DNA from: Escherichia phage vB-EcoP-XT32
Strand: one strand, 5' to 3'
DNA: 64,000 nt
Sequence record: OR757435
This document shows positions 5,707 through 63,928 of the stretch, one piece after another. How positions within the stretch are numbered: position 1 is the first letter of the stretch; every line of letters starts with the position of its first letter. The notes beneath the pieces were generated by a model, which saw nothing but the letters and a program-made list of their open reading frames with translations, was not told the DNA's origin and searched no databases. A program made the position numbers and the translations under genes.

Positions 5707-5747
5707 TCGACAAATTAATTATTTAATAGTATAGGAGCTAACATAAC

Positions 5748-6809
5748 ATGGCTAATCCAACTTTATTTGTATCGTATGACCAGAATGGTAAAAAACTTTC
5801 TTTTGCTAACTGGATTTCTGTTCTGTCCCCTCAGGATACCCCGTTCGTATCCATGACCGGTAAAGAGTCTATCAACCAGACTATCTTTAGCTGGCAGACC
5901 GATGCACTGGCAAGCGTTGATGGTAATAACGCACACGTCGAAGGCTCTCGTGCTGAAGACGGCGAAATGAAACCGACTGTTATCAAGTCTAACGTTACTC
6001 AGATTCTGCGTAAGGTTGTTCGTGTTTCTGACACTGCTAACACCACCGCTAACTACGGTCGTGGTCGCGAACTGATGTACCAGCTGGAGAAGAAAGGTAA
6101 AGAGATCAAGCGTGACCTCGAGAAAATCCTTCTGTCTGGTCAGGCTCGTACCGACGTTCTGGCTGACCAATACCTGACTAACTCTGCCGCTGACCCAGAT
6201 CAGATTGGCAAGAACGACACCCATGCAGCTCGTAAGACTGGTGCATTCCAGTTCCTGTGTGCTCACGGTGGTCTGGCTGGCGGCGTTGTTGACAAGACCA
6301 AGAATGGTCCTGCTGACCCGGATACTGGTGCAATCACTGTTAAAGTTGCACAGAACGCTTCTAACCCGGCTACTAACATCGGCTTTGATGAAGCAGATAT
6401 CTTTGATATGACTCTGCAACTGTACACCGCTGGTTCTGAAGCAGATATCATCATGATTAACCCGGCTCATGCTAAGATCTTCGCTGGTCTGCAAGAAAAT
6501 ACTCAGGGTTCACGTAAGCGTATCTTTGAAAACACCAAGCAGTTCATTTACGAAGTTAACAGCATCACTGACCCGCTGGGCCAGAGCTACAAAATCATCG
6601 TTAACCGTTGGATGCCTACCGATGCAGTTTACTTCTTCCGTAGCGCTGACTGGACTCAGATGGTTCTGCGTGCTCCGAAACGTACTGAACTGGCTAAAGA
6701 TGGTTCTTACGAAAAATGGATGATTGAGATGGAAGTTGGTCTGCGTCACCGCAACCCGTATGCTTCCGGTGTTCTGTTCACTGCTGCGGGAAAGGCAGTG
6801 GCGGCGTAA
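5748..6809 (+). CDS. major capsid protein
   Basis: 353 aa; strong RBS (AGGAG) 10 nt upstream; follows scaffold; codon usage biased to common codons; size typical of HK97-fold podophage capsid proteins. Confidence 0.8.
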   Translation: MANPTLFVSYDQNGKKLSFANWISVLSPQDTPFVSMTGKESINQTIFSWQTDALASVDGNNAHVEGSRAEDGEMKPTVIKSNVTQILRKVVRVSDTANTTANYGRGRELMYQLEKKGKEIKRDLEKILLSGQARTDVLADQYLTNSAADPDQIGKNDTHAARKTGAFQFLCAHGGLAGGVVDKTKNGPADPDTGAITVKVAQNASNPATNIGFDEADIFDMTLQLYTAGSEADIIMINPAHAKIFAGLQENTQGSRKRIFENTKQFIYEVNSITDPLGQSYKIIVNRWMPTDAVYFFRSADWTQMVLRAPKRTELAKDGSYEKWMIEMEVGLRHRNPYASGVLFTAAGKAVAA

Positions 6810-7336
6810 CAGTAGATACCATAACTGTTAGTCCTTCGTCGGTTGCAAGCCTTCCGACGGGGGCTACTCAGCAGTTTACAGCTACAGCACAAATCAGTGA
6901 TAGCTCCACATCAACAACTGGATTTGTTTGGTCCGTTGAGGGTGGTGGGGCTATTTCTGTTTCTGGACTGTATACTGCACCGAGTGCGTCGCAAGAATCC
7001 CCGATTACAGTGAAAGCTACTAAAGGTGGTAAATCCGGTACATCTACGATCTCAGCTATTGCTGACCCTGAACCTACCCTTGTTAGCCGAGGGCCGATTT
7101 CAGGGAAGGTGGGTGGATCAACAACCGCATTCTCTACTATGTTTACAGCAACAAACTCTACCGGAAGTGACTATACTTTTGAGGTAACTCCTCCGGAAGC
7201 GGGCACTGTTAGTGCAGCTGGTCTTTTGACTCTTGCTGATACTGCTACGGGTGCAGTCTCTGTTACAGCTACACACGAGACTAAACCTCTTGTAACAGCC
7301 ACTTGTGAATTCACAGGTGTAACACCTGCTGCTTAA
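5748..7336 (+). CDS. major capsid protein, C-terminally extended isoform via putative -1 frameshift at 6788-6794 (Ig-like/Big_2-type extension, about 180 aa)
   Basis: -1 frame downstream of slippery site encodes Ig-like repeats (ITVSPSSVASLPTGATQQFTATAQ..., ITVKATKGGKSGTSTISAI...); no RBS or ATG for an independent gene (track ORF 7010 starts at GTG without SD). Confidence 0.55.
6788..6794 (+). promoter_or_regulatory. putative -1 programmed ribosomal frameshift slippery heptamer G_GGA_AAG
   Basis: X_XXY_YYZ heptamer in capsid zero frame, 13 nt before capsid stop; -1 frame is open from 6728 through 7336. Confidence 0.55.
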
Positions 7337-7343
7337 AATTAGA

Positions 7344-7367
7344 CCCTGCCTTCGGGCGGGGTTTTTT
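7344..7367 (+). terminator. rho-independent terminator after capsid/Ig-extension
   Basis: Hairpin CCCTGCC-TTCG-GGCGGGG followed by TTTTTT. Confidence 0.7.
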
Positions 7368-7395
7368 CGTTTTAAGACCTATACAAGCTAGTGTG

Positions 7396-7405
7396 TAATG
7401 TATAT
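7396..7405 (+). promoter_or_regulatory. TAATGTATAT motif (candidate phage-sigma-dependent promoter element)
   Basis: Exact 10-mer, one of three exact plus-strand copies in the window, all intergenic; 32 nt upstream of ATG at 7438, just after a terminator. Confidence 0.45.
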
Positions 7406-7437
7406 TCTTTGTCTACATATAACAAGGAGGACAACCT

Positions 7438-7950
7438 ATGGCAATGCCAGATTTCAGAGGAGCTTTTACATATAACCCAAATACAGGGCATCTTTTCTGG
7501 TCTATGAGTAACATATTCAATAAACAGAAAGGGCAACGTGCTGGATGTATTAATAATAAGGGATATCGTGTACTAACCTTCAAGAAGAAATCGTACCTAG
7601 AGCACAGGGTCATAGCTGAACTCTTTCTTCCTAAAGTAGAAGGGAAGGATTATGTCAACCATAAGAATGGAATAAAAGATGATAACAGGATTGAGAATCT
7701 AGAGTGGTGTACTCAACAAGAAAACTGTGTACATGCTTATGAAACAAAACTCTCAACACCAAGAAATCTTGAGGATAACCCTAATTCCAAACTTACTAAA
7801 GAACAAGTTCTTTTCTGTTTAGAGAACTATAAACCGAGGGACAGACAGTTCGGAGCTAGAGCTTTAGCTAGGAAGTTTGGAGTCTCTTCAAGTACAATAA
7901 GCCTGATAATCAATGGCACAAACTGGAAGGAGGTATCCTATGTTGCCTGA
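7438..7950 (+). CDS. HNH homing endonuclease
   Basis: 170 aa; N-terminal NUMOD4-like FRGAFTYNPNTGHLFW and HNH core HKNGIKDDNRIENLEW; inserted between capsid and tail genes. Confidence 0.8.
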   Translation: MAMPDFRGAFTYNPNTGHLFWSMSNIFNKQKGQRAGCINNKGYRVLTFKKKSYLEHRVIAELFLPKVEGKDYVNHKNGIKDDNRIENLEWCTQQENCVHAYETKLSTPRNLEDNPNSKLTKEQVLFCLENYKPRDRQFGARALARKFGVSSSTISLIINGTNWKEVSYVA

Positions 7951-8698: not shown

Positions 8699-11600
8699 AT
8701 GATCAGTTACAACAATTCAGCACCTACAGCGGTGAATAATGTAGGCCAATTTGGTGCTACAGAAGGATCAATTGGTGCTTATAAATCAGCGGCTGAGTAT
8801 GCAGCTGATGCTAAATATTGGGCGCTGTTATCCCAGACTAAATATTCTTCAGTAGATGAGATTCTTGCTGAGGTAGAACGTCTATACGCTCAAGGGTTCC
8901 TGCTAGAGTCTGACATTAAGCAACTTAAAGAAGACTTTGAAGCACAGAATCAGACTCTTCTAGGTCTTATTCAGTCTACGGGACAGGCTATTGACAATAC
9001 AAATGCAGCTACAGATCTTTCAAGAGAAGCAACGCAGCAAGTCCTAGAACAGCTTGATATTATTTCTAATATGACGGTACAGACGACGCTACTACCCCCA
9101 GGTAGTTTGGCAACGGGTTCCTATGACAATACAACTGGTGTATTCTCTTTTGGTATTCCAGAAGGGAAGCCGGGTCGTGACGGAACAGATGGTACAATTT
9201 CAGACATTGGGGAAACTCCTGTTGGTATTCCTGTGTCGGATGATTATGGTTTTTTCGTAGATAAGGACTCTGGTGGGCTGTATAGAACCTCAATGGTTGA
9301 CATTGCTAATCTAATCCCCTCTGTTCGGTCAGTATCTCTTAATGGAGGTGTTGCTCAAACAGGAGAAGTTTCTTTACAGGTGGTTTCCAGTTTTAACTCA
9401 CGGACAGGTGTTGTATCACCGCAGGCCGGAGACTATACTGTTGAGCAGATTACCGGTGCAGCTAAGAGTGGCTCTAACTCAGATATTACCTCCCTCTCAG
9501 GTCTAACCACACCTCTCTCTCTGCTCCAAGGCGGTACGGGTTCTTCCACGGCAGAGGGGTCTAGATCTAATTTAGGATTAGGTGATGTTTCTGTAGAAAA
9601 TATTGTTCCTATTTCGAAAGGTGGTACAGGAGCAATTAATACTACTATTGCTAGATCTAATTTAGGATTAGGTGATGTTTCTGTAGAAAATATTGTTCCT
9701 ATTTCGAAAGGTGGTACAGGAGCAATTAATACTACTATTGCTAGATCTAATTTAGGATTAGGTGATGTTTCTGTAGAAAATATTGTTCCTATTTCGAAAG
9801 GTGGTACAGGAGCAATTAATACTACTATTGCTAGATCTAATTTAGGATTAGGTGATGTTTCTGTAGAAAATATTGTTCCTATTTCGAAAGGTGGTACAGG
9901 AGCAATTAATACTACTATTGCTAGATCTAATTTAGGATTAGGTGATGTTTCTGTAGAAAATATTGTTCCTATTTCGAAAGGTGGTACAGGAGCAATTAAT
10001 ACTACTATTGCTAGATCTAATTTAGGATTAGGTGATGTTTCTGTAGAAAATATTGTTCCTATTTCGAAAGGTGGTACAGGAGCCTCTTCTCCGGACACGG
10101 CAAGGCTCGCACTGGTTGCGGCTAAGAGTGGGGCTAACTCAGATATTACTTCGATGACAAATAAGGTAACTTTTTCTCAACCTATACGTATACCAAACGC
10201 CGTTGAGAGTGACGAAGCAGTGGCATTAGGTCAGGTATCTAATGTGGTCTCTCAAGAACTAGGCCTGCCTACAGGGTTTAATCTTATTGGAGATCTCCCC
10301 TCTATTGAACAACTTCAGACCTTAGAGGGAGCTTCTGTAGGTGACAAAGTCTTTGTAAGATCTTATGTCGAAGGGGCTAATATGGGAGGGGGTGTGTTTG
10401 TAGCAATAGACAATTCAGAAACAGCTGATGGGGTGGTGGTTTTCAGTGGAGTTTCTGTAAAATGGAAGAGGTTGCTATTCTCTGGAGAAGCTTCTGTGTT
10501 TGATGCAGGCTACACTGGCAGCGGGGATATTGCTGTTTATATCAACAAAGTGAACTCCTCTGGTTACGATTGTATAGTTCCAACTTCTGGATCCGTATTA
10601 TCTGAGATAGCTATTGACGTTTCTAAAGGAGCCTTGATAGGCTATAATAATTGTAAGCTTCAGGAAGGGGCTGGAGCAACAGGTCAATATTTCTTGAAGA
10701 TTATAAATTCAAACACAGATTATGGGCTTAGAGATTCGATTTCTTCAACAGCTAAGATATCAGGAGTGTCCTTTGTTGGTCTAGGTGCCAGAAAGGTTGT
10801 AATTGGAGGGACTGATAGTGGGGAGGTGTCGGAAGTTCGGATAGAAAATTGTGGTTTTATCTCAACAGCTGGTCTTGAATTCCTTGATAATTCATATAGG
10901 ATCCTTTTTGACAAATGTGCAATAAGTAGAAGCTTTACGGACACGGTTGTTTTTAAATCAAGAGCGAACTCTGGAGAAGTTATAAAGTTCAATCACTGCT
11001 GGTGCGTGGATAACGGAGGACCTTTTACTTTTGAGAATGGACAATTCATCTTTGATACGTGTTCACTTCCTGCTGGGAAAAAGTCTGGATATTTTGACCC
11101 AACCATTATAATGACAGACAACGCCACAGTTGTTTTTTCTAATGGGAACATTGAGTATCAACCGGATCAGTCTTTTGTTTCTTTTTCTGTTAATGGTAGT
11201 TCGAGATTGAGCATAAAAGATTCGACAATTTTGGTCCCTGTAGGTTTTAGTTCTGTCCCTATAGTAAGTAATGGGGATGGTTTTGTTTCTCTGACAAACT
11301 GCTCTCTACCTCTGTATGGCAACAATACTCTAGCCACTGGTTTCCCTACTCGCCAACTCATCGGCGGTGATAGTAAGAGAGTTGTGTCTAACGGATGTTA
11401 CCCTAGAGCTGGTTTTGTCTTAAGTAGGTGGGATCTTGGATCTATTGTAAGCCCTTACATTAATAGTCTTAGTAATGGTTCCGGGCAATTCTTAAATACA
11501 TCTAACTGGACATTTAGTCAAACAGGATCAGGGGTAGTGTCAGTTTCTCAACCCAATGATGTTCCGAGTTCGTCTCCTATGTTTAACACATCATTCTCTT

Positions 11601-11914
11601 TTGGTGTCCCAGATACGACTAGCTCGGCAAACTTCACCCAATCAGTGAGTGAGTGTCATCCCGGAAGATACTTTCAGTTTGGTTTTTGGGCTAAGAATAC
11701 AACCACTACACTAGCATCTATTAGGTTTCTAGATTCAGCAGGTAATGCAGTTTCTGAGTCTATTGGATATTACATACCTAGTAACAACTCGTTCAGTTTC
11801 TATGCTGTTATTGATTCAGTTCCTCCAGGGTCCAGTAAGGCTGAAATTAATTTCAACATAGGTGGCGCAGTTGGGGGGTGTGTTCTTCACAACATCATCT
11901 ATGGATTGATATGA
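8699..11914 (+). CDS. tail fiber/tailspike protein with tandem 30-aa repeats
   Basis: 1071 aa; fiber-like N-terminus; 5.8 perfect copies of a 30-aa unit (RSNLGLGDVSVENIVPISKGGTGAINTTIA); S/T/N/G-rich C-terminal region. Confidence 0.7.
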   Translation: MISYNNSAPTAVNNVGQFGATEGSIGAYKSAAEYAADAKYWALLSQTKYSSVDEILAEVERLYAQGFLLESDIKQLKEDFEAQNQTLLGLIQSTGQAIDNTNAATDLSREATQQVLEQLDIISNMTVQTTLLPPGSLATGSYDNTTGVFSFGIPEGKPGRDGTDGTISDIGETPVGIPVSDDYGFFVDKDSGGLYRTSMVDIANLIPSVRSVSLNGGVAQTGEVSLQVVSSFNSRTGVVSPQAGDYTVEQITGAAKSGSNSDITSLSGLTTPLSLLQGGTGSSTAEGSRSNLGLGDVSVENIVPISKGGTGAINTTIARSNLGLGDVSVENIVPISKGGTGAINTTIARSNLGLGDVSVENIVPISKGGTGAINTTIARSNLGLGDVSVENIVPISKGGTGAINTTIARSNLGLGDVSVENIVPISKGGTGAINTTIARSNLGLGDVSVENIVPISKGGTGASSPDTARLALVAAKSGANSDITSMTNKVTFSQPIRIPNAVESDEAVALGQVSNVVSQELGLPTGFNLIGDLPSIEQLQTLEGASVGDKVFVRSYVEGANMGGGVFVAIDNSETADGVVVFSGVSVKWKRLLFSGEASVFDAGYTGSGDIAVYINKVNSSGYDCIVPTSGSVLSEIAIDVSKGALIGYNNCKLQEGAGATGQYFLKIINSNTDYGLRDSISSTAKISGVSFVGLGARKVVIGGTDSGEVSEVRIENCGFISTAGLEFLDNSYRILFDKCAISRSFTDTVVFKSRANSGEVIKFNHCWCVDNGGPFTFENGQFIFDTCSLPAGKKSGYFDPTIIMTDNATVVFSNGNIEYQPDQSFVSFSVNGSSRLSIKDSTILVPVGFSSVPIVSNGDGFVSLTNCSLPLYGNNTLATGFPTRQLIGGDSKRVVSNGCYPRAGFVLSRWDLGSIVSPYINSLSNGSGQFLNTSNWTFSQTGSGVVSVSQPNDVPSSSPMFNTSFSFGVPDTTSSANFTQSVSECHPGRYFQFGFWAKNTTTTLASIRFLDSAGNAVSESIGYYIPSNNSFSFYAVIDSVPPGSSKAEINFNIGGAVGGCVLHNIIYGLI
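9561..10083 (+). repeat. perfect tandem repeat array, 90-bp unit x 5.8 copies, in-frame inside tail fiber gene
   Basis: Unit CTAGATCTAATTTAGG...ACTACTATTG repeats at 9561, 9651, 9741, 9831, 9921, 10011 with 100 percent identity. Confidence 0.95.
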
Positions 11915-63847: not shown

Positions 63848-63928
63848 TGGCGTCCCCACTAGGACTCGAACCTAAAATGGATTTNGATTTTTAGAAGAAA
63901 ACTGTTATATCCTTTTAACTATAGGGAC
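63848..63928 (-). tRNA. tRNA, probably tRNA-Arg (anticodon UCU), with encoded CCA
   Basis: 7-bp acceptor stem GTCCCTA/TGGGGAC, D-arm GTTA-AAAGGATA-TAAC, anticodon loop CTTCTAA, T-arm TTAGG-TTCGAGT-CCTAG, 3' GCCA; unusually long variable region containing one N. Confidence 0.6.

Follow-up and report, generated by a model that had tools for sequence, protein, structure and literature searches.

The major capsid protein (MCP) gene of Escherichia phage vB-EcoP-XT32 very probably gives rise to two products, with a -1 programmed frameshift at the slippery heptamer G_GGA_AAG appending Ig-like domains to a minority of the capsid protein. This reading is supported by the register of the heptamer, the overlap between the two frames, the lack of an independent start for the Ig-like frame, the invariance of the heptamer among relatives, the coding periodicity of the -1 frame and the constant -1 relation between the capsid and Ig-like frames. 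The analysis covers a stretch of 64 kb from record OR757435 (hereafter the window), and the coordinates of the features are collected in Table 1. Detection of the long isoform in virions comes from published work on close relatives; the analysis of XT32 itself covers its sequence. The initial annotation had presented the frameshift as a putative find. The frameshift reading is supported, but such a frameshift is already well established in this group of phages, having been described in publications or in annotation for phiEco32, SU10, Paul, Privateer and YF01, and in this respect there is nothing new in XT32.

Table 1 Features of the capsid locus of XT32 (positions in the window)
Feature	Position	Strand	Description and basis
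MCP ribosome-binding site, AGGAG	5733-5737	+	upstream sequence
MCP gene, 0 frame	5748-6809	+	353 aa, 38.8 kDa; ORF list
Dual open region, 0 and -1 frames	6728-6806	+	79-nt overlap; no in-register slippery heptamer inside other than GGGAAAG
Slippery heptamer G_GGA_AAG	6788-6794	+	GC[G GGA AAG] in the MCP frame, X_XXY_YYZ register
-1-frame extension	6794-7336	+	180 codons plus TAA; C-terminal tail of the predicted MCP fusion
Weak AU-rich hairpin, candidate stimulator	6807-6830	+	7 bp, -4.3 kcal/mol; starts at the MCP stop codon
Ig-like domain 1 (Big_2, PF02368)	6812-7030	+	Pfam; extension residues 7-79
Hairpin inside the Big_2 coding sequence	6834-6862	+	-12.4 kcal/mol; core 6837-6842 pairs with 6854-6859
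Second Ig-like module, divergent Big_2, ~85 aa	7112-7282	+	Pfam sub-threshold, PHROG
Intrinsic terminator	7341-7374	+	10-bp stem, 6 GC pairs, TTCG loop, T-run; terminator search hit at 7341-7364; directly after the extension stop

XT32 is a phiEco32-like Kuravirus, with a nucleotide identity of 86–99.8% to the Kuraviruses compared here, phage XT18 reaching 99.8% in this region. Its MCP belongs to the SU10_MCP family (PF17236, 6e-77), the sole Pfam family matched in the Pfam search, and is almost identical to the SU10 capsid chain with its HK97 fold (PDB 7z45, 2.9e-231). It is orthologous to phiEco32 gp11 and SU10 gp9, and within the Kuravirus group the MCP proteins are 92–100% identical. The gene is preceded by the scaffold gene and followed by the adaptor and tail fibre genes, an order common to other Kuraviruses, with an HNH endonuclease gene inserted just 3' of the terminator in XT32. 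This terminator, which had been described as a strong one just past the extension and is indeed found there, is annotated at the equivalent place in the SU10 and Paul records and closes the capsid transcription unit.

With the codon phase checked against the MCP ATG at 5748, the heptamer is in register, as had been claimed. The distance of 13 nt to the capsid stop given in the initial annotation is the count to the first base of that stop; the gap itself is 12 nt, placing the slip point four codons ahead of the TAA (6807-6809). The -1 frame is closed by a TGA at 6725-6727 and then open from 6728 up to a TAA at 7334-7336, in agreement with the open frame of about 180 aa described earlier. The bare GGGAAAG motif is not enriched in the 64-kb window (6 copies versus 7.5 expected), and since this count is uninformative, a test on register and open frame was used instead. 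Within the long ORFs of both strands, 30 in-register X_XXW_WWZ heptamers are present, and only the one in the capsid gene precedes a long open -1 frame (at least 100 codons). The literature reports a high propensity of G_GGA_AAG to shift in E. coli (PMC5009743), and the same heptamer serves as the slippery site of lambda G/GT (PMC3296357). Three other ways of extending the capsid protein were ruled out: stop-codon readthrough, as the 0 frame meets a TAG two codons past the TAA, a +1 frameshift, as the +1 frame is shut 7 codons past the MCP stop, and transcriptional slippage, as no long homopolymer run is present.

In the proposed mechanism, ribosomes on the MCP gene would arrive at the heptamer, where in a small fraction of cases the P-site tRNA-Gly would move from GGA to GGG and the A-site tRNA-Lys from AAG to AAA, one base back. 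The slipped ribosomes would then bypass the TAA at 6807 and read the -1 frame to 7336. The predicted slip product counts 349 + 180 = 529 aa (55.9 kDa, versus 38.8 kDa for the MCP) and would consist of the entire HK97-fold core (residues 1-349), a Gly/Ser linker, the Big_2 domain and the second Ig-like module. At the predicted fusion junction, ...FTAAGK is directly followed by GSGGVTVDTITVSP..., and the peptide spanning this junction would read ...TAAGKGSGGVTVD..., or likewise ...TAAGKGSGGVTVDTITVSPSSVASL. Judging from lambda G/GT, where the site is identical, a slip efficiency of a few percent would be expected. Co-assembly of the fusion with the 353-aa form is predicted, and would leave a minority of the ~715 capsid subunits with Ig-like domains. 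These would be located on the surface of the head, probably acting as weak adhesion or decoration modules. A minority of subunits displaying such domains would be relevant to how phages adhere to mucus or to the surface of the host, and to the use of the capsid C-terminus for display.

The extension shares 65% identity with the gp12 region of phiEco32 and 70% with the extension of Paul, and matches PHROG 13745 ('Ig domain containing protein', 1.8e-74). Its Ig-like, Big_2-type character, already recognised in the initial annotation, is confirmed by Pfam, with 31.8 bits for the whole extension and 24.5 bits for domain 1 alone, both above the Big_2 gathering threshold of 22.8 bits. Domain 1 starts some 6 residues past the slip site, far ahead of any start codon. 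The second module reaches 18.5 bits against Big_2 (E = 0.0019), under the same 22.8-bit cut-off, matches PHROG 33551 in addition to PHROG 13745, and is tandemly repeated in the longer extensions of Paul and YF01, with repeated matches to it at 44% identity within Paul's 545 aa. A single-sequence AlphaFold model of the 180-aa extension alone was unusable (pLDDT 41). Before position 7010, variable sites are distributed over the first, second and third codon positions of the -1 frame as 31, 15 and 59 (chi-square p = 7e-7). As judged from this pattern of substitution, the extension frame is coding from the junction onward, with purifying, codon-periodic evolution.

All 17 Kuravirus-group sequences have the heptamer unchanged and in register, with the flanking synonymous sites varying, and it is also kept in register in two Privateervirus sequences. 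The spacer between heptamer and stop is either 9 or 12 nt, a difference of one whole codon, and indels occur in whole codons. In 16 of the 17 Kuravirus-group sequences the extension is intact, its length being modular and ranging from 178 to 545 aa. The SU10 reference genome carries a 1-nt insertion that halts the -1 frame after 11 codons. In the GenBank record of Paul the two frames are already combined into a joined CDS, annotated 'Frameshift at GGGAAAG; Frameshift in PhiEco32 ... PMID 18294652'.

Stimulators are common, though not obligatory, at -1 frameshift sites, and may be a hairpin or pseudoknot some 5-9 nt to the 3' side or a Shine-Dalgarno-like sequence to the 5' side. RNA structure prediction, suggested in the initial annotation as a check for a downstream stimulator, gave no clear one: there is no convincing stimulatory structure at the canonical spacing of 5-9 nt 3' of the heptamer, and the first 60 nt 3' of the heptamer fold no better than shuffled sequences (z = -0.26). 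Neither is there a Shine-Dalgarno-like sequence 5' of the heptamer. The nearest hairpin is the weak one at the MCP stop codon, located 12 nt past the heptamer in XT32 and 9 nt in phiEco32. Because both its arms are invariant in 14 sequences, synonymous sites included, there is no covariation for or against it. The hairpin within the Big_2 coding sequence lies ~43 nt past the heptamer and shows compensatory changes among relatives, with one pair occurring as G-C, U-A or A-U, never broken, and a neighbouring pair as G-C or U-G. Two further folds were rejected as stimulator. The consensus fold favours a different long stem over an 86-nt multibranch fold (z = -2.4), the base helix of which hinges on a 3-nt indel, and a hairpin whose loop contains the heptamer, pointed out by Mirzaei et al. 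and amounting to -10.7 kcal/mol here, would be melted once the ribosome is on the site. An Rfam scan of positions 6650-7450 returned sub-threshold matches only, all on the terminator hairpin, and no frameshift element.

Instead of a frameshift product, the Ig ORF could be a separate gene with an internal or non-canonical start of its own, encoding a free protein for capsid decoration or another role. This is how it is annotated in most GenBank records (phiEco32, SU10, ShigP1, SU7, XT18 and others), and the authors of the SU10 cryo-EM study likewise regarded gp10 as a protein of its own, perhaps with weak binding (PMC9509320). In XT32, a product of 108 aa could be translated from a GTG at 7010. 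However, no ATG, GTG or TTG occurs in the -1 frame, open from 6728, ahead of this GTG, and no candidate start is preceded by a usable Shine-Dalgarno sequence, which bears out the earlier statement that the extension has no independent RBS or ATG. The sole motif of this kind, GAGG at 6938, is followed 11 nt later by an ATT, unlike the AGGAG or AAGGAGG of the neighbouring genes. Moreover, the annotated starts vary among records (+14 GTG, +86 ATG, +129 and the GTG at 7010). The +14 GTG of phiEco32 is replaced by ATA in XT32 and by GTA in Paul, YF01 and ECBP2, and the +86 ATG of XT18 and NJ01 by ATC in XT32; across the relatives aligned here, the candidate start codons are thus not conserved. Starting at 7010, inside domain 1, would remove nearly all of this domain, yet the stretch ahead of 7010 shows the substitution pattern of a coding region in this frame, and the Pfam domain starts at the junction. 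A separate gene also offers no explanation for a heptamer that is invariant and in register, nor for the constant -1 relation, and is considered quite improbable.

Even less probable is termination at the TAA at 6807 followed by reinitiation on a near-cognate codon. The Ig frame does start a few nt from the MCP stop in every clade, and two such codons, ATA at 6821 and ATC at 6893, are present in XT32. However, a coupled restart generally depends on a proper start codon, in most cases together with a Shine-Dalgarno sequence, and none is present or conserved. Reinitiation would explain neither the invariance of the heptamer nor why every clade keeps the -1 frame open from upstream across the heptamer, and relatives are reported with a ~55-kDa fusion, not with a free protein of ~18 kDa. 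Finally, heptamer and ORF might be an inherited relic, the long isoform being dispensable or not usefully made, as is apparently the case in laboratory SU10, where the capsids are normal and without extra density despite the insertion in the extension (PMC9509320; PMC9965538). Against this, the 180-codon frame of XT32 is intact and under purifying selection with codon periodicity, the other Kuravirus-group sequences except SU10 have kept it open with modular growth up to 545 aa, and other clades maintain both isoforms by other genetic routes, making a relic the most doubtful of these alternatives. Under the preferred reading of a -1 frameshift, the Ig ORF, usually listed separately and from an arbitrarily chosen start, ought to be annotated together with the capsid gene as its -1 product, in a joined entry.

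Protein evidence has been reported for relatives. In Privateer, two capsid bands were seen on gel and supported by mass spectrometry, and the same paper cites detection of the long form in phiEco32 (PMC7881722). According to a comparison of the YF01 group, the same heptamer is present together with the same 353-aa MCP (PMC9965538). For SU10, mass spectrometry in 2014 gave capsid forms of 38.5 and 55.4 kDa (PMC4281155), whereas no long isoform was found by cryo-EM and SDS-PAGE (PMC9509320; PMC9965538). The 2014 claim of a long form in SU10 is doubtful because of this result and of the 1-nt insertion in the reference genome. Together with the invariance of the heptamer and the -1 coding periodicity, the literature on close relatives supports the frameshift originally proposed for XT32.

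In every clade with an Ig ORF, this ORF is in the -1 frame and starts within a few nt of the MCP stop. The closest cases are phiEco32, Paul, YF01 and further Kuraviruses (Gordonclarkvirinae), which share the GGGAAAG at 9-12 nt from the stop, a homologous -1 extension (65–70%) and the terminator next to it. XT32 differs from other Kuraviruses in details alone, in being a 12-nt spacer variant with a 180-aa two-module tail, in having lost the internal ATG and GTG used by annotators and in the HNH endonuclease insertion. Privateer (Privateervirus) resembles XT32 in having a G_GGA_AAG ending a homologous MCP (~56% identity) and an Ig-like -1 extension. Here, however, the heptamer abuts the stop (G_GGA_AAG_TAA), and the extension consists of an I-set followed by a Big_2 domain, whereas that of XT32 has Big_2 followed by the divergent Big_2.

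Among better-known systems, lambda G/GT shares the identical G_GGA_AAG and the same E. coli tRNAs, and reaches ~4% frameshifting without a strong RNA stimulator (PMC3296357; PMC9965538). Unlike in XT32, the gene concerned is a tail chaperone gene, and the long product is an assembly factor absent from virions. T7 10A/10B and T3 gene 10 are comparable in that a -1 shift late in the major capsid gene yields a minor longer isoform that co-assembles. The parallel with T7 10A/10B drawn in the initial annotation stands as far as this minor isoform is concerned, but does not extend to the Ig-like domains: T7 uses a G_GUU_UUC-type site and has a short non-Ig tail, and it is the extension of T3 gene 10 that is Ig-like (PMC5009743). 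The XT32 locus therefore works like T7 10A/10B without being a member of it. A third type is found in phi29 gp8, Salmonella SeKF_80, Cronobacter A24 and Aeromonas BUCT695, prolate podophages like XT32 with an HK97-fold capsid protein carrying one or more C-terminal Big_2 domains at the same topological position. Domain 1 of XT32 aligns weakly to the C-terminal BIG2 of gp8 (PDB 6qvk, E = 7e-4). In these phages the fusion is in frame, without recoding. SeKF_80, A24 and BUCT695 have a second, bare MCP paralog as the short form, the ratio being set by two genes and not by slip efficiency.

Since relatives keep the pair of short and long capsid proteins by different slip motifs or by gene duplication, the sequence comparison suggests that the pair, and not the mechanism, is under selection. 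The added value of the present analysis is modest and comparative, and lies in this retention of the pair by differing routes; for the Kuraviruses themselves nothing is new. Tentatively, and with less than even confidence, a bare and an Ig-tailed MCP might be a deeply conserved requirement of prolate (C3) podophages that is met by interchangeable routes, with the Kuravirus hairpin ~43 nt past the heptamer as a possible long-range tuner of slippage. Long-range tuning of slip efficiency has reportedly been described for T7 gene 10. The routes proposed comprise slippage on G_GGA_AAG, A_AAA_AAG or C_CCA_AAA, G_GUA_AAG combined with a hairpin, and tandem duplication. Where a clade lacks a frameshift, a bare MCP gene stands alongside a gene with MCP and Big_2 fused in frame, and it is the outcome of two isoforms that is conserved. 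Besides Privateervirus, -1-frame Ig domains across the MCP stop are present in PJNS034, with C_CCA_AAA, and in Lahexavirus-type loci, with G_GTA_AAG. In the latter, the G_GUA_AAG is a non-canonical, unannotated and predicted site, with a GC hairpin 6 nt downstream.

In a structure-database comparison, the major capsid protein (MCP) has a near-identical counterpart in SU10, whose capsid chain is solved (PDB 7z45). Its gene ends in the codons ACT GCT GCG GGA AAG GCA GTG GCG GCG TAA, and this reading puts GGGAAAG in the exact X_XXY_YYZ register. A tandem slip would yield a computed product of 349 + 180 = 529 aa (55.9 kDa, with junction ...FTAAGK followed by GSGGVTVDTITVSP...), next to 38.8 kDa for the MCP alone. 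The initial annotation had described a heptamer near the capsid stop and a -1 frame open over 6728-7336, encoding about 180 aa of Ig-like (Big_2-type) sequence with no RBS or ATG of its own and a strong terminator just behind it. All these factual statements are correct. Based on the register, the conservation of the heptamer, the coding signal and the lack of a conserved start, a fusion of the MCP and the Ig-like extension is very probably made by -1 frameshifting, as had been proposed.

Features of the capsid locus and of other parts of the window (L024 is the locus of phage PJNS034)
Feature	Position	Strand	Remarks
MCP gene	5748-6809	+	353-aa ORF; Pfam SU10_MCP match, 6e-77
Slippery heptamer GGGAAAG	6788-6794	+	MCP-frame register; stop 12 nt further on
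-1 open frame	TGA 6725-6727 to TAA 7334-7336	+	Frame translation; TGA closes it upstream
Weak hairpin	6807-6830	+	-4.3 kcal/mol; begins 12 nt past the heptamer
Stronger hairpin	6834-6862 (core 6837-6842 / 6854-6859)	+	Within Big_2 coding sequence
Strong intrinsic terminator	7341-7364	+	Directly past the extension
HNH_3 homing-type endonuclease gene	7438-7950	+	170 aa; strong AAGGAGG SD
Tail-fibre ORF	8699-11914		1071 aa
90-bp perfect tandem repeat	9561-10083	+	5.8 copies, 100% identity, no indels
tRNA-Arg (anticodon TCT)	63848-63928	-	Single tRNA gene found in the window (tRNA search)
PJNS034 -1-frame Ig-domain extension	L024 4085-4489		132 aa; annotated as separate hypothetical protein

Such a capsid frameshift with Ig-like domains is already known for this phage group. 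Across the region, identity reaches 99.8% with Escherichia phages XT18 and XT73 and 86-97% with NJ01, phiEco32, SU10 and many others, all of them in Kuravirus and related genera (Gordonclarkvirinae, prolate C3 podophages). For YF01 and other group members, a 353-aa and a longer MCP have been described, with slippage at GGGAAAG near the stop adding Ig-like domains (PMC9965538), and the GenBank records of Paul and YF01 contain joined capsid CDSs. The practical consequence is an annotation correction.

Independent initiation of the Ig-like ORF is how most GenBank records of the group present it, but the annotated starts of this 'separate' gene are not conserved among relatives. The GTG at +14 in phiEco32 is ATA in the window (6821-6823) and GTA in Paul, YF01, ECBP2 and E20-1, while the ATG at +86, the annotated start of the 'Ig domain protein' in XT18/NJ01, is ATC (6893-6895); a conventional start for a separate Ig gene is thus gone here. 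The first ATG, GTG or TTG of the -1 frame is at 7010, within the first Big_2 domain. The sole SD-like motif found for the extension is GAGG at 6938, with ATT 11 nt 3' of it, compared to AGGAG at the MCP gene and AAGGAGG at the neighbouring HNH endonuclease gene. When 13 sequences are compared, the sites that vary within extension codons 1-78 fall 31/15/59 on -1-frame positions 1, 2 and 3 (chi-square p = 7e-7, the columns being phylogenetically non-independent), so the sequence ahead of any start codon evolves as protein in the -1 frame. Independent initiation is accordingly poorly supported, and so is access to the extension by reinitiation.

A decaying relic is also a poorly supported explanation of the site. 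All 17 Kuravirus-group sequences keep the heptamer unchanged and in register, with a spacer to the stop of 9 or 12 nt that differs by a whole-codon indel, and only one extension of the 17 deviates, that of SU10. As to chance occurrence, bare GGGAAAG is not enriched in the window (6 copies vs 7.5 expected). Among all 30 in-register X_XXW_WWZ heptamers in long ORFs on both strands, however, only the capsid site leads into a -1 frame that stays open for at least 100 codons.

The SU10 exception (L002, reference genome KM044272) is a 1-nt insertion 28 nt past the heptamer (~2575 in locus coordinates); with it, the -1 frame runs into a stop after 11 codons. The long isoform is missing from cryo-EM and SDS-PAGE (PMC9509320, PMC9965538), and no extra density was seen by cryo-EM (PMC9509320), results that this early stop would explain. 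A slip site 'as in phage phiEco32' and forms of 38.5 and 55.4 kDa had been reported for SU10 in 2014 (PMC4281155); given the insertion, the 55.4-kDa form is in doubt.

A downstream RNA stimulator remains unproven. Compared with shuffles, an 86-nt segment past the heptamer has a somewhat better fold (z = -2.4), but no such advantage is seen in the first 60 nt (z = -0.26), and the near hairpin is weak, its arms being invariant even at synonymous sites and thus without covariation. The stronger hairpin does covary among Kuraviruses, with one pair as G-C, U-A or A-U, never broken, and its neighbour as G-C or U-G; at ~43 nt past the heptamer it is too distant for a classical stimulator. An Rfam search of the locus gave no match. 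The identical heptamer of lambda G/GT gives ~4% frameshifting without strong structure (PMC3296357, PMC9965538).

Residues 7-79 of the extension match Pfam Big_2 above the gathering cut-off, and the whole matches PHROG 13745 'Ig domain containing protein' (1.8e-74). The second half holds a weaker Big_2-like module (18.5 bits, under the Pfam cut-off), of which phage Paul has tandem copies in its longer extension. Extension lengths in the Kuravirus group (178, 180, 351, 370, 459 or about 545 aa) fit a gain of Ig-like repeats as modules. With its phiEco32 counterpart the extension shares only 65% identity, whereas the MCP core exceeds 97% identity to the solved SU10 chain, a pattern that would be expected of an exposed decoration module.

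More distant relatives were grouped at 55-65% MCP identity (42% for PJNS034). In Privateervirus, G_GGA_AAG adjoins the TAA, with I-set and then Big_2 in the -1 frame; for Privateer, two capsid bands and mass-spectrometry detection are published (PMC7881722). The E. coli phage PJNS034 has C_CCA_AAA 3 nt ahead of the MCP stop and a stable hairpin ~15 nt downstream (z = -3.1), and one uncultivated IMG/VR contig has A_AAA_AAG. A perfect heptamer is absent from the MCP end of Aeromonas Lahexavirus (LAh_9) and four IMG/VR contigs (L010-L013), which carry G_GTA_AAG. Here Big_2 or I-set begins at the MCP stop (3922 or 4122) in the -1 frame, the G_GU P-site resembles T7 gene 10, and three of the four contigs (L010-L012) have a GC-rich hairpin (GCGCCC-CUAC-GGGCGU) 6 nt downstream. 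These look like unannotated frameshift sites; in the LAh_9 record, the Ig ORF is entered as a separate 'tail protein'. No -1 extension was found in Cronobacter A24, Aeromonas BUCT695 or Salmonella SeKF_80, which have two MCP paralogs in tandem: a bare protein (~310 aa) and an in-frame fusion to 1-3 Big_2 domains (361-589 aa), another way of obtaining the same pair of capsid isoforms. Since slip motifs differ and tandem genes occur across clades, the conserved trait appears to be the pair of short and long capsid proteins, with frameshifting one among several ways to it. These alternative routes are the only, mildly new, angle.

The HNH_3 gene is an insertion past the capsid terminator and ahead of the adaptor gene, whose start it overlaps; it is present in XT18 and, at the same place, in Bas86, and absent from phiEco32, SU10, Paul and YF01. 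Further downstream, the 90-bp repeat in the tail-fibre ORF translates into a 30-aa unit, SNLGLGDVSVENIVPISKGGTGAINTTIAR, present six times; the repeat has either expanded very recently or arisen as an artefact of assembly.
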